Source: an uncultured Polyangiaceae bacterium (GTDB lineage Bacteria; Myxococcota_A; Polyangia; Polyangiales; Polyangiaceae). Taken from it: 50,624 nucleotides of DNA. Below, piece by piece: positions 45,590 to 49,044 of the stretch. The notes beneath the pieces are model-generated. The model saw only the letters and a program-made list of their open reading frames with translations, was not told the origin of the DNA and made no database searches. The DNA lies in assembly GCA_964488865.1 (NCBI GenBank), contig CAZAWR010000074.1, positions 1-50,624 of the forward strand. Direction: 5' to 3'. A program made the position numbers and the translations under genes. Position 1 is the first letter of the stretch. Every line of letters starts with the position of its first letter.

Positions 45590-46026
45590 CAGGCTTCGCC
45601 TCCCTGCAGCTAGACCAGATGATCCGTCAGTACGTGCTCACCCACGGACAGATTGTCAGGTCGGACGTAGTGGACCTCTGCGGGATCGGGGCGGCCCAAG
45701 CTTCGCGAGTCCTGGCCCGCCTGGTCAAAGAGGAAGAGCTCGCCGCCGAGAGCAAGGTTCGATGGCGCAAGTACCTCCCGGGACCGAAGCTGCAAGGGGG
45801 GACATCATGAGCCGTCATAAACGCGGTTCGGGGCCCATGTCTTCGTAACATACTAAATGCAATAGTTTTTTCTATAAGCGGTCTATCCGCGGACCGCGTA
45901 TAGGAAACGCGCGTATCGAGCCTCGCTTCCACGACAACCTCCCGATTGAGTTGAAGGTTCCATATACGCGGCGCCTATGCGCGCCGCGCATAGACCGCGG
46001 ATAGCCACTCCCCGTGACGCGCAGCC
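45590..46026 (+). repeat. Truncated duplicate of 48578-49044: last ~65 codons of the regulator gene plus its 3' flank
   Basis: About 80-85% identity with indels. The copy includes ccatatacgcggcgcct(a/g)tgcg and atagaccgcggatagcca blocks. Confidence 0.8.
45619..45810 (+). pseudogene. Stand-alone winged-HTH C-terminal fragment (paralogue of residues ~250-314 of the 47862..48806 reading frame)
   Basis: MIRQYVLTHGQIVRSDVVDLCGIGAAQASRVLARLV matches MIRQYVRTHGQIVRSDVVDLCGLGTDQATRLLARLV. An in-frame TGA lies just upstream. Confidence 0.5.
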
Positions 46027-46415
46027 CAGAGGTTGGCCCTGCCGGACGCCAGTCTTGGACCGGCTTCGGAACTGTGGACTCGTGCATAGCGTGTCGAAGA
46101 GCCGGGCAAATCCTGGAATCACGAACAGGGTTGGCTAACCAAACAGGCGGCTAAGAAAGACCCCGCAAAAGGGCCGAAGAAAGCCCCCAAGAAACACCCG
46201 AAACTGCCCGACTGGTCGCGTGGCTCTTTCCTCGGCAGCCTTGCGGTTGGCTGTTGGCTTCGGTGCTGACGGCTGCCCCGAAACCCGCACAGTCCCCGGC
46301 GACTTGTTTGGTCCCTTGGATTCCGGTAGCGTCGCCGTGTGTGCATGGTTTCTGCCGTGTGGGATGCGCGGGTCGATCGCCAGGTGGGCGAAAGCCCCGT
46401 GAGACGGACGCTTCG

Positions 46416-47735
46416 GTGAACGGCAGGACCGACGATCGCCCCGATCCGAGCCGCGTCATCGCGTCGCTCGCGCGCGACCGGGTCAACCTCGACCTGAAGA
46501 CGGTGGACCTTTGCTTCCTCGCAGGGCTCTACCTCAAGGCGGACAAGGCAGCGCTCGCGTCGTTCGAGGAGGACGCGCTCGTCGACATGTTCGAGCAGAT
46601 CTGCGACGTGGTCGACCCCGCCGCCGAGAACCCCCGCAAGCGAGCAACCCACGCGATCCAACGACTGCGCGAGCAACGGATGCTGGCACGCGTCGACGGC
46701 GCCGGCATCGTGCGCGCGGGAGACTACGCGTTGACCAGGCTTGCGGCCGCGGTCGTGGAGTACTTCCTCGCGGACGAGGCGTTGACGCGCGAAAGCTTGA
46801 CGTTGCTTACGGGCACACTGCGTGCCCAACTCGCCGAGGTTCTCGCTACCGCGAAGAAAGCCGAGGGCGAGGATGCCTGGCGCGCGACTGTCGTAGGGCC
46901 GCTGCGCGTCACGGTCGGAGACCTCGTCGCCGGCATCGAACGCCGGCAGCGCGGCCTCGACGCCCAGCAAGAGGAGGTACAAGCCCAGATCGCCAAGCTG
47001 CTCTCGGCCGATTGGTTCAGTGCCGTGGACCGTTGCGAGGCGTTGCTCGACGCCACCACGTCCACCCTACGGGAGCTGAACGAGATCCTGCTCCGAGACA
47101 CGCACCACTTCGTTGCGCTCCTGCTCGAGATCCAGACGCTCGCCGTAGCTGTCGCGAACACCGAGGCCGAAGCCACGGTCCAGCGCGTCATCGAACACGT
47201 GGACCGCATCGCCGCCTGGGGCTCCGCGAGACAACGGGCGTGGTCGGAGTACTACCAGTACGTGCACCGGTACTTGCGCGACGTCGTCCGTCTCGACCCC
47301 GACCGCGCTCTCAGCCAACGTCTACGAGACCAGCTAGCCGCTTGGCCCAAGCGTCCGTTCCACCTCGTCGCCGCGCGCGCGCCTTCCATCCGCCTCCTGC
47401 GCGCGCTCGAAGCGCGCGTCGAGCACCCACCCGTGGTCCAACCGCGCGCGGAACGCGATGCGGATCCTGAATGGGTCGAGCCCGAGAGCCTGGTCGCCGA
47501 CATCGAGGCCCTTGTGGAACGGGCACGCGATGAGGGAGCAGCCACCCTCGCAAGCGTGTCGTCCCGGGTTCTCTCGGACCTGCCGCAGGCCGTGCGCTAC
47601 GCGGCGACGGGCCGCATTGCCCACGCGGTCGCGCAGCGCTCGCAGGTCCGAAGTGAGCGGGAGCGACCTTGGACTCCCGCGCTCGATCGCCTCGAAGTGG
47701 AGGACTGGACCATCGATTGGAGCAGCAAATCATGA
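46416..47735 (+). CDS. Candidate Wadjet JetA / MksF-like (DUF3375-like) protein
   Basis: A ~440-aa all-helical protein whose stop overlaps the ATG of a DUF4194-like ORF (ATGA). Family assigned from architecture and motif recall only. The GTG start at 46416 is uncertain; the ORF opens at 46254. Confidence 0.4.
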   Translation: MNGRTDDRPDPSRVIASLARDRVNLDLKTVDLCFLAGLYLKADKAALASFEEDALVDMFEQICDVVDPAAENPRKRATHAIQRLREQRMLARVDGAGIVRAGDYALTRLAAAVVEYFLADEALTRESLTLLTGTLRAQLAEVLATAKKAEGEDAWRATVVGPLRVTVGDLVAGIERRQRGLDAQQEEVQAQIAKLLSADWFSAVDRCEALLDATTSTLRELNEILLRDTHHFVALLLEIQTLAVAVANTEAEATVQRVIEHVDRIAAWGSARQRAWSEYYQYVHRYLRDVVRLDPDRALSQRLRDQLAAWPKRPFHLVAARAPSIRLLRALEARVEHPPVVQPRAERDADPEWVEPESLVADIEALVERARDEGAATLASVSSRVLSDLPQAVRYAATGRIAHAVAQRSQVRSERERPWTPALDRLEVEDWTIDWSSKS

Positions 47736-48050
47736 CGGGCTCGACGTTCCAGACCCTCGAAAACGCCATCGCACACGACCACTTCCCTGAAGTCGATCTG
47801 ATGTTGCGGCGCGGGCGGCACATCGGACGCGACGACGGGACCCTCTACGAGTACCTCGTCGATGCGCAGGCGATCCTCGAGAAGTTCTACGAGCGATTCG
47901 GGTGCGGGCTGGTCCAGCGAAGCGATGGCTACTTCTTCCTGCTGCCGTCGGGAGACCAATTGGGACGGAGGCATCTTTCCGCCGGAGAGATGCTCGTGGG
48001 CCAGACACTCGCCTTGCTCTACCTCGATCCAGCGACGCTGCAGCCAGGAC
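47732..48050 (+). pseudogene. Candidate JetB / MksE-like (DUF4194-like) 5' half, truncated
   Basis: MTGSTFQTLENAIAHDHFPEVDLMLRRGRHIGRDDGTLYEYLVDAQAILEKFYERFGCGLVQRSDGYFFLLP...LALLYLD. The frame degenerates into Arg-rich nonsense after about residue 105 and no jetC/jetD follows. Confidence 0.35.
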
Positions 48051-48053
48051 GAC

Positions 48054-48806
48054 GCGCTGGTCATCAGCAATCCTGGGGGGTTCGTCGAAGGCGTCACCCT
48101 CGACAACCTGTTGACGACGGAACCCAGGCCGAGGAATGCGTCCCTCGCGGACATCTTCAAGCGGATGGGGCTGGTAGAACGAACGGGCCGCGGCGTGGAC
48201 ATCATCTACCGAGGGCTGCTGCGGTACGGTCGTCCGTACCCCGACTACTCGCGCAGCGACTCGTCCTCGGTCGTCCTGCGCATGCCGGTCGAAGAAGCCG
48301 ATCTGCAGTTCCTTCGGCTCATCACCGAGGAGGAGAACCGTCAGCAAGCGCCTCTTCCGATCGACAGCCTCATTGCGCTGTCGATGCTGCGGGAGCAGCG
48401 GCGCACGACCCGAGCGGAGCTCCAGCGAGCCATCCAGAAGGATGAGGCGGCGGCAACACGAACGCTGGAAGCGCTGCGGGAGCGGGGCCTCGTCCAGTCC
48501 CAAGGGCGAGGGCGGGGCAGAACCTACATGCTGAGTGCGAAGGTCTACACAAGGCTCGGAGAGCGTTCGGAGTACGTCAGGCAGGCAGGCTTCTCCTCCC
48601 TGCAGCAAGACCAGATGATCCGCCAGTACGTGCGCACCCACGGGCAGATTGTCAGGTCGGATGTGGTGGACCTCTGCGGGTTGGGGACGGACCAGGCGAC
48701 GCGGCTGCTTGCGCGGCTGGTGGAAGAAGGCGTTCTTGTCGCTGAGGGCGACCGTCGTTGGCGGAGGTACCTGCCGGGTCCGAAGCTGCACGGGAGCCCC
48801 CTATGA
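48054..48806 (+). pseudogene. 5'-truncated fragment of a regulator gene: second half of an HATPase_c_4 (RecG-C-like) domain plus a C-terminal winged HTH
   Basis: LVISNPGGFVEGVTLDNLLTTEPRPRNASLADIFKRMGLVERTGRGVDII. It lies in frame +1 relative to the jetB-like fragment, has no start codon of its own and lacks the N-terminal ~300 aa of the family. Confidence 0.5.
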
Positions 48807-49044
48807 GCGCGCGTATAGAAACCGCGGATAGGAAGGTCACGGATGGCAAAATAAGCTTCATTTTTCGAAGAGTTGGGCTATCCGCGCCCTATCCGCGGAC
48901 CGCGCATAGACCGCGCATAGAGACCGCGGATACCCAGTCCCCAATTCTGTTTCAAACTTTTGATTTCATTGATTATTCCATATACGCGGCGCCTGTGCGA
49001 ACCGCAGATAGACCGCGGATAGCCATTCCGCGTGAGGCACAGCC
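48578..49044 (+). repeat. Longer copy of the duplicated gene 3' end plus flank (see 45590-46026), with AT-rich patches and TATCCGCGG/CCGCGGATA palindromic motifs
   Basis: Direct comparison. Confidence 0.8.

Follow-up and report, generated by a model that had tools for sequence, protein, structure and literature searches.

Why should the 3' end of one kind of gene stand twice on a short stretch of DNA, cut at two different 5' points and followed both times by a flank full of short repeats? The question is raised by positions 45,590 to 49,044 of the window that we analyzed, a stretch of 50,624 nucleotides (nt) from an uncultured Polyangiaceae bacterium (contig CAZAWR010000074.1), where a first-pass annotation made from the letters alone had noticed two truncated copies of the end of a regulator gene. 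Our reading is that the two copies are what is left of two paralogous genes of a Schlafen fusion family, which would have stood at the heads of two adjacent defense cassettes, one of Wadjet type and one of bacteriophage exclusion (BREX) type 6. The repeats that follow them would be an array that belongs to this gene family and that could be bound as DNA by the winged helix-turn-helix (wHTH) domains of the encoded protein. We give this reading, taken as a whole, a probability of about 0.6. Its parts differ in firmness and are weighed below, each with the alternatives that bear on it.

Two remnants of Schlafen fusion genes and their flanks

The segments 45588-46026 and 48584-49044 form a single contiguous homology (71.6% identity over 462 columns with 24 gaps, E-value 3e-61; blastn/MAFFT), so that the shared 3' terminus and flank first noticed are borne out. 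The homology begins abruptly at 45588 and extends as far as 46026 and 49044. Nucleotide identity is 79% in the coding parts (45588-45812 versus 48584-48808) and also 79% in the distal flank (45935-46026 versus 48953-49044). The shared flank measures 216 nt in copy 1 and 238 nt in copy 2, close to the 230 bp originally estimated. The length first given for copy 2, about 250 codons, stands (253), whereas the 65 codons given for copy 1 become 73 when counted from 45588 and 63 when counted from its first ATG at 45619. An in-frame stop (45580-45582) lies just 5' of copy 1. When full-length homologues were used as tblastn queries, the region of copy 1 aligned to their residues ~488-553, and no trace of the N-terminal half of the Schlafen fusion gene was found anywhere in the window. 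Copy 1 lacks the HATPase_c_4 domain, and copy 2 retains most of it plus both winged helices. Both junctions are also present in a separately assembled Logan contig (L001, run SRR8863431), which possibly comes from the same sample.

What did these genes encode? Pfam, the homology to the structure 3LMM and an AlphaFold model agree that the C terminus is of wHTH type, as the first-pass annotation had it. In the 314-residue open reading frame (ORF) that contains copy 2 (window 47862-48806), the first winged helix gives weak Pfam matches of MarR type (residues 172-214) and the second a match to DIP2311-like_C (residues 258-303). The model of copy 2 has two complete tandem wHTH domains with H-H-H-E-E topology and a predicted local distance difference test score (pLDDT) of 80-95. 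Its best Foldseek match is 3LMM, and tandem winged-helix DNA binders come next. The Pfam domain HATPase_c_4 (PF13749) is matched with an E-value of 2.5e-16 at profile positions 10-85 of 89; hence this domain of copy 2 is missing about its first nine positions, and the stub is poorly folded in the model (pLDDT 45-73). A profile of the homologues matches DIP2311 (PDB 3LMM), the only solved relative, over the region from HATPase_c_4 to the wHTH domains with an E-value of 1.3e-27.

Homologues with 55-75% identity are found in the databases in many phyla. The full-length ones have about 550-570 residues and begin with an AlbA_2/Schlafen domain bearing the catalytic motif Ex4ExK (e.g., ESLTVEFK), followed by HATPase_c_4, a domain of GHKL or HisKinase-like type, and then by the winged helices. 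The word "regulator" therefore fits the winged helices but is incomplete, since the parent also has a Schlafen-type nuclease domain with an intact Ex4ExK. PMC13056530 lists the architecture under the name pSlfn-HisKinase-HTH, assigns 19.2% of prokaryotic Schlafens to it and places it in a class described as defense effectors, defense having been demonstrated there for other Schlafen fusions and not for this one. The family is reported beside BREX loci in at least 1017 taxa (PMC13056530, PMC12839542), and the second source speaks of a "Schlafen RNase + minimal histidine kinase + wHTH" adjoining BREX loci. The Schlafen/AlbA_2 nuclease domain with its Ex4(E/D)xK motif is in neither copy of the window, and because it is gone the two copies are remnants of pSlfn-HisKinase-HTH members and not members. 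PADLOC did not recognize the Schlafen fusion. A plasmid collection held no member of the subfamily, only relatives of about 25% identity. Several homologues on long contigs (P0024, P0036, P0080, P0085, P0095, P0097; also the one at locus L060) have only 240-330 residues and consist of the C-terminal half alone; these could be either recurrent 5' truncations in other genomes or short forms that do without the nuclease.

The first-pass annotation took the two copies for nested truncations of one gene, a view that the comparisons contradict. The copies differ from each other by 0.54 synonymous (dS) and 0.17 nonsynonymous (dN) substitutions per site, and this dS together with a dN/dS of 0.32 argues that they were distinct paralogues under purifying selection before they were truncated. 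A full-length parent of the kind first looked for does exist: a close relative, L091, has an intact gene of 568 codons, with the Ex4ExK motif as ETMTVEFK, from which copy 2 differs at only 10 of 759 nt. So close a match makes the truncation of copy 2 recent, and the idea that there might be no full-length homologue falls away with it. Copy 1 is only 80.6% identical to the same gene (window 45588-45798 versus L091 8727-8937; blastn). Judged by these alignments, the copies are old paralogues that were truncated separately, each by its own deletion, rather than recent local duplicates of each other. Copy 1 is a dead remnant.

The flanks have their own peculiarities. Allowing for at most one mismatch, the unit CCGCGGATAG has 13 matches in the window, 12 of them within 45883-46004 and 48822-49022, so that the dyads reported for the shared flank are indeed concentrated there. 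By chance alone one would expect 4.4 matches over the full 50.6 kb, and 13 or more were reached in none of 100 shuffles. The GC content of the flanks goes down to 0.55-0.58, as against 0.65-0.70 around them, and both AT-rich stretches that had been pointed out are present (~45848-45877 and ~48848-48870). The two flanks follow a common plan of two clusters about 90-100 nt apart, with two reverse and two or three forward units spaced by 11-13 nt and with AT-richer spacers (Table 1). Flank B is about 96% identical to the flank of L091, but 89 nt between two identical GACCGCGGATA units are absent in the latter. An Rfam scan of 45400-49500 at E ≤ 1 gave no match. A promoter and terminator scan of both flanks found neither a plus-strand (sigma-70-like) promoter nor a terminator within the arrays, and its sole promoter-like match is on the minus strand (49001-48972). 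As no intact gene remains beside them, both arrays of the window would now be orphan sites.

Table 1. Features of the window discussed in the text; units are listed by first position and strand
Feature	Start	End	Strand	Description
Copy 1	45588	45810	+	Last 73 codons and stop of a Schlafen-HATPase_c_4-wHTH gene; of the winged helices, only the second is kept
Flank A (array of copy 1)	45811	46026		Unit consensus CCGCGNATAG; AT-rich patch ~45848-45877
Flank A, first cluster	45872	45918		Units 45872(-), 45883(-), 45894(+), 45909(+)
Flank A, second cluster	45962	46004		Units 45962(-), 45975(-), 45984(+), 45995(+)
jetA / mksF	46416	47735	+	MukF-like kleisin; intact; Pfam MukF_M, KicB; first gene of Wadjet-type jetABCD; gene call in source contig L095
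jetB' / mksE 5' fragment	47732	48044	+	~104 codons; Pfam MksE matched only up to profile position 100 of 163
Junction jetB'::'Schlafen	48040	48050		CTGCAG, then CCAGGACG; microhomology of 1-3 nt; reading frames differ
Copy 2	48045	48806	+	Last 253 codons and stop of a paralogous Schlafen-HATPase_c_4-wHTH gene; nuclease domain missing
Flank B (array of copy 2)	48807	49044		AT-rich patches ~48848-48870 and ~48944-48979
Flank B, leading units				Units 48809(+), 48822(+)
Flank B, first cluster	48878	48933		Units 48878(-), 48889(-), 48900(+), 48911(+), 48924(+)
Flank B, second cluster	48980	49022		Units 48980(-), 49002(+), 49013(+)
SEC-C-motif gene	49435	50538	+	First gene after flank B; Pfam SEC-C

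Arrays after the stop codon across the gene family

Are such arrays peculiar to this window? We compared 80 loci from species-representative genomes of the Myxococcota, Pseudomonadota, Desulfobacterota, Cyanobacteriota, Chloroflexota, Fibrobacterota, Actinomycetota, Acidobacteriota, Planctomycetota and Bacillota, 77 of which entered the array counts. Short tandem or inverted units directly after the stop codon are present in nearly all of the 80. The arrays begin a few bases past the stop and number from 3 to more than 13 units, each 10-11 nt long. In 39 of the 77 loci (51%), some 8-mer is present three times or more within 120 nt past the stop, as against 0.6% of 3520 control windows and 0-5% in neighboring intervals. 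With 9-mers and one mismatch, three or more sites were found in 65 loci, the first of them at a median of 7 nt past the stop. Spacings on the same strand are most often 10 nt (90 intervals), then 11 nt (26), with a lesser maximum at 20-21 nt, and there are 4.3 units per locus in the 150 nt after the stop, compared with at most 0.15 per locus in any other bin. The units have both orientations in 22 of the 65 loci and a single one in 43. We have little doubt that the array is a conserved part of the gene module. It would be a widespread cis element following this gene family, and apparently an undescribed one: no description of such an array turned up in full-text searches and in the available text of the two most relevant papers, a body of literature that is incompletely covered.

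The sequences of the units are lineage-specific, many of them with a core of YTATG type. The forward unit of the window, CCGCGGATAG, aligns after rotation, and in the same orientation, with GCGCGGTTATG of L030. Locus L010, whose protein is 74% identical, has CGCGGATAG and CGCAGATAG units after the stop and then a BREX-6 pglZ, and the cyanobacterial locus L002 has three tandem GTTATGAGCGG units. Dyads occur in Myxococcota, and the units of L047 and L051 are perfect palindromes. Copy number varies widely even among related loci of Pseudomonas type, from at least 13 irregular GCCGCTATGA units in L035 (6763-6950) to 2-4 in L024, L028, L031, L032 and L057, which indicates that the arrays expand and contract. 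Two plasmid relatives (about 25% identity) also have repeated units after the stop, as checked by eye. At two loci (L033, ~6760-6900; L089, ~6748-6900) the array is followed by the apparent 3' end of a metallopeptidase-type gene (...HEMVHLHEPHH...), a sequence arrangement that suggests putative deletions ending exactly at the array.

What lies beyond the arrays was addressed by clustering the downstream proteins and annotating representatives. A type I restriction protein, HsdR, follows in a cluster of 28 loci, a BREX-6 PglZ in 4 (plus L010 and the source contig of the window) and HsdM in 2; a DruE-like helicase, an MkoA-like helicase, a cyclase-STAND protein and an ORF containing an MksE domain are found at single loci. 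The last of these (L018) is unrelated in sequence to the MksF of the window. When the MksF, MksE, SEC-C, 311-residue and 286-residue proteins of the window were sought downstream of the arrays of the 80 loci, the only match was to one SEC-C-motif protein. The Schlafen gene and its array thus usually head defense cassettes.

This setting raises the possibility that the arrays simply serve the downstream defense operon as operators or promoter elements. The protein would then regulate the cassette in the classical way, as BrxR and CapW do, and it would be incidental that the array lies after the stop. The downstream gene is on the same strand in 59 of 75 cases, often only 50-120 nt away and mostly with a role in defense, and the AT-richer spacers between the clusters of units could house a promoter. 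However, the arrays are equally present beside convergent, unrelated genes at six or more loci (an HD-GYP sensor at L047, GT87 at L051, a pseudouridine synthase at L088, AbiEi at L061, and a SWIM protein at both L066 and L078), a jetABCD operon that lacks the Schlafen gene (at locus L092, described below) also lacks the array, and neither flank of the window has a sigma-70-like promoter on the plus strand. The convergent neighbors and L092 together indicate that the array belongs to the Schlafen gene and not to the downstream operon, and we consider operators of the cassette an unlikely explanation, if one that deserves to be kept in mind. The first-pass annotation had proposed that the dyads are operators for the wHTH protein itself. 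The part of this proposal that makes them wHTH sites is strongly backed, on comparative grounds, by the similar arrays after the stop in 65 of the 77 related loci, while the notion of simple operators for a downstream operon sits badly with the arrays kept beside convergent genes.

The arrays could instead act as RNA, as repeats in the 3' untranslated region (3'-UTR) that the Schlafen RNase or the winged helices bind or cut, with an autoregulatory or inhibitory outcome loosely like that of type III toxin-antitoxin systems. An RNase-type domain is part of the protein (PMC13056530), and the array is there whatever gene is downstream. The first unit follows the stop so closely, with no terminator between them, that its position would suit an RNA element of the 3'-UTR just as well as a DNA site. 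All units have the same orientation in two thirds of the loci counted (43 of 65), but a single orientation would also be expected from simple co-inheritance. Known type III antitoxin repeats are about 36 nt long, and the units described here are far shorter. Further, no Rfam family was matched, inverted and palindromic units of this sort are what one usually sees in dimeric HTH operators, and spacings of 10-11, 20-21 and 31 nt fit the helical repeat of DNA. An RNA role is to our mind improbable.

We favor a role as DNA because the units form dyads and palindromes and because their spacing equals the helical repeat of B-DNA. The units would be cognate double-stranded sites of the protein's own tandem winged helices, and a spacing of one helical turn would let several protomers align on one face of the DNA. 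Winged helices of PhoB/OmpR type on direct repeats and ParR on 11-bp iterons are aligned in a similar way. Gene and array are inherited together, as one unit that heads interchangeable defense cassettes; the array would hold or position the nuclease-bearing protein beside its own gene and, where a cassette follows on the same strand, would also gate transcription into it. That the array is bound as DNA by the winged helices, a step drawn from sequence comparison, we regard as an even bet; a tether or a gate as its consequence is doubtful.

Several observations weigh against this proposal. The divergence of the units tracks that of the gene (Mantel r ~0.25, p ~0.001), but the co-variation gives the winged helices no special place: every domain has an r of about 0.25, HATPase_c_4 correlates equally, and partial correlations of 0.11-0.14 fail to separate it from the wHTH part. 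As all domains correlate equally, this result speaks for co-inheritance only. No units matching those of the array, of the kind that autoregulation or looping would need, were found at the 5' end of the gene, which leaves classical autoregulation unsupported. Finally, the median distance of 7 nt fits either kind of nucleic acid, as mentioned above, and winged helices can also bind RNA, the SelB-SECIS (selenocysteine insertion sequence) complex being among the fold matches of the copy 2 model.

A bolder idea, and a long shot, is that the array serves a toxic Schlafen tRNase as its DNA "antidote" or docking site. The winged helices would capture the units as the protein is made, and the nuclease would remain tethered and silent until a disturbance of the host DNA during infection released and activated it. 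Such a disturbance could be DNA degradation, DNA-mimic anti-restriction proteins aimed at the neighboring type I restriction-modification (R-M) or BREX system, or competition from phage DNA. If this were true, gene and array would be a self-contained two-part immune module, and it would become clear why the most common HTH-bearing class of bacterial Schlafens heads cassettes of restriction type.

Junctions, neighboring cassettes and the history of the locus

How did two such genes come to be reduced to their 3' ends? We propose that two cassettes once lay side by side here, A-jetABCD and B-BREX-6, both with a Schlafen fusion gene in front, and that the region is what their decay has left. Copy 1 and flank A would be the remainder of gene A before a jetABCD operon of Wadjet type, and copy 2 and flank B the remainder of its paralogue, gene B, before a BREX type 6 cassette. 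One illegitimate deletion would have taken the first ~490 codons of gene A and another, recent one, everything from jetB codon ~104 through codon ~315 of gene B. This identification of the fragments and the history of two deletions are in our view highly probable.

The evidence comes from a three-way comparison of the window with the jetB and the Schlafen gene of L091, with breakpoints set by blastn. Copy 2 is joined to jetB at codon ~104, and the frame changes across the junction. Homology to the L091 jetB ends at window position 48044, which corresponds to L091 11629. On one side of this point, window 46090-48044 is 97% identical to L091 9665-11629; on the other, 48044-48940 is 96% identical to L091 8187-9093 (blastn in both cases). 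In L091 the order is the intact Schlafen fusion gene, its flank and then a complete jetABCD. In L092, whose MksF is 91% identical, jetABCD comes straight after a gene of 311 codons, with neither the Schlafen gene nor the array, and window 45587-46057 is wholly missing. The outer breakpoints, 45586-45588 and 46058-46090, are thus common to three genomes, and since they enclose three different contents the slot must be variable in this lineage.

Two points speak against this history. The order of L091 is permuted: immediately upstream of jetA it has a gene of B type together with its flank and also the first 40 nt of the SEC-C gene. Simple deletions from an ancestor with A-jetABCD and B-BREX do not explain this order; for this reason we had to abandon a single ancestor that would give the window, L091 and L092 by deletions alone. 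Also, the interrupted BREX genes described below could be assembly errors.

The permuted order invites an alternative in which 48044 is the junction of a tandem duplication or circular permutation, an L091-like ancestor having duplicated, head to tail, the stretch from Schlafen codon ~315 to jetB codon ~104. The junction has the signature of such an event, as relative to L091 a downstream point (11629) is joined to an upstream one (8187). Still, the flank of copy 2 runs into a complete SEC-C gene and a BREX-6 cassette rather than into jetA, the copy upstream of the window jetA is the 80%-identical paralogue and not a second copy of B type, and L091, which keeps only the first 40 nt of SEC-C, is itself rearranged; all this makes a duplication hard to credit. 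Slightly less probable still is the account first suggested, in which a single regulator gene was hit at its 3' end by recombination or integration more than once and nested copies were the outcome, through a hotspot or an inserting mobile regulatory module. It would explain why the two copies agree in their 3' end and flank but not in the place of their 5' cut, why three genomes differ between the 311-codon gene and jetA within coinciding outer breakpoints, and how an array can recombine internally (as in the loss of 89 nt between identical units in L091), but the copies diverged long ago as paralogues, an intact gene of L091 is almost the same as copy 2, no integrase or transposase is in or beside the region, and the junction at 48044 lies inside both genes, away from the array.

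For similar reasons we rejected a mobile element that moved by site-specific recombination. No recombinase, integrase or transposase gene is present in 43-50.6 kb or in the next 5 kb beyond, there are no repeated ends, and the junction inside coding sequence has a microhomology of only 1-3 nt. Of the "remnants of a mobile regulatory module" in the first-pass annotation, what comes close is that gene and array behave as one inherited unit at the head of interchangeable cassettes; what is missing is any sign of site-specific integration. The two-deletion reading leaves the local structure as ordinary gene decay within a defense island.

Both cassettes that follow the arrays are broken. The product of the window jetA is 99% identical to a protein of L091, where genes for MukE, MukB and JetD_C come next. 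The window is without the rest of jetB and without jetC and jetD, and therefore has fewer than the four genes of a jetABCD system; complete jetABCD operons are present in L091, L092 and L093. With PADLOC, the JetC and JetD models match weakly and the JetA and JetB models do not match. The source contig of the window (L095) extends 5 kb farther, and there the SEC-C gene is followed by BREX type 6 pglZ, brxD and brxHI. In L095 14120-19242, placed at 3.5-8.6 kb past window position 50624, PglZ_6 is found as ORFs of 238 and 747 residues and BrxD as ORFs of 126 and 271 residues (PADLOC, NCBIfam), splits that could be genuine decay or could come from frameshifts in the assembly. BrxHI runs into the end of the contig, which stops before BrxC or PglX could appear. 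The locus is a defense island in decay, its Wadjet and BREX-6 cassettes inactivated along with the Schlafen-type gene at the head of each.

Some further observations concern these neighbors. The MukF-like JetA of the window has homologues (P0121-P0240) with 76-91% identity across metagenome-assembled genomes labeled Sorangium, Kofleriaceae, Labilithrix, Steroidobacteraceae, Solirubrobacteraceae and Azoarcus, and this similarity suggests a recent and wide horizontal spread. The JetA orthologue of L091 exceeds the cut-off of the NCBIfam MukF equivalog (411.8 versus 407), yet it stands in an operon of jetABCD type with a JetD_C gene and is missed by the JetA and JetB models of PADLOC. The 311-codon gene (window 44577-45485, minus strand) borders copy 1, and the right end of its block (45586-45588) is the breakpoint common to the three genomes. 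In L091 this gene is duplicated (2695-3603 and 5696-6655), with an HTH_17 gene and a PhdYeFM antitoxin gene lying between the duplicates. L091 also has a filler of 140 nt (9525-9665), which separates its 40-nt SEC-C remnant from the region upstream of jetA and holds an ORF of 29 codons (MAYKQTDDDKRKAFLDDLAAEAQHQGLGY).

A third family of repeats, GTGCC.CCGTGCCTCCGTGGTGAATCTCTTTCAGGCTGCG..., brackets the SEC-C gene (window 49108-49159, 49346-49397 and 50556-50607; L091 9168-9223 and 9397-9448). It includes a hairpin with a T-rich tail that looks like a terminator in the scan. The Logan contig ends close to its first copy, as would fit a multi-copy element resembling repetitive extragenic palindromes or miniature inverted-repeat transposable elements. 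Elsewhere in the window, a 209-residue ORF (40163-40789, minus strand) beside a tRNA-Pro gene (40054-40132, minus strand) matches the Major Vault Protein shoulder domain (E-value 3e-12) and a Vault_3 repeat; this shoulder domain is unusual in a bacterium.

Comparison with known systems

For about a fifth of bacterial Schlafens, the array after the stop offers a concrete candidate for what the HTH part recognizes. Being fixed in position and lineage-specific, it gives a testable handle on recognition by these domains, and it would also serve as a marker of the boundaries of defense cassettes. The full-length homologues share with pSlfn-HisKinase-HTH proteins both the order of domains and the setting in defense islands (BREX, type I R-M, Wadjet). 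The window differs from them in having C-terminal remnants only, with the nuclease domain gone. No repeat array after the stop is mentioned in the available text of the papers on these Schlafens (PMC13056530, PMC12839542). The best fold match of the copy 2 model, DIP2311 (3LMM) of Corynebacterium diphtheriae, is about 25% identical and is a structural-genomics entry without known function or DNA target. The genes after the two arrays of the window belong to the Wadjet/MksBEFG and BREX type 6 systems.

A functional parallel may be drawn with the regulators BrxR and CapW (wHTH-WYL-WCX). These too are winged-helix proteins that head interchangeable cassettes, among them BREX and the cyclic-oligonucleotide-based antiphage signaling system, and that have cognate sites beside their genes. 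Beyond the wHTH domain the folds are unrelated: the Schlafen family lacks WYL and has a nuclease and a GHKL-like domain in its place. The sites of BrxR and CapW lie upstream, in their own promoter regions; unlike these, the units of the Schlafen family are found only after the stop, also where no operon follows. The form of the arrays recalls other systems. Plasmid Rep iterons, the 11-bp repeats of R1 parC that are bound by ParR, and the direct repeats of PhoB/OmpR are all short units set one helical turn apart, close to AT-rich stretches and next to a gene whose product binds DNA. The Schlafen arrays resemble them in their spacing of 10-11 bp, in their direct and inverted units and in their AT-rich stretches. 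They differ in that the loci are chromosomal and have no replication or partition genes, in that the units are few (3 to more than 13), and in that the adjacent protein is a nuclease fusion.

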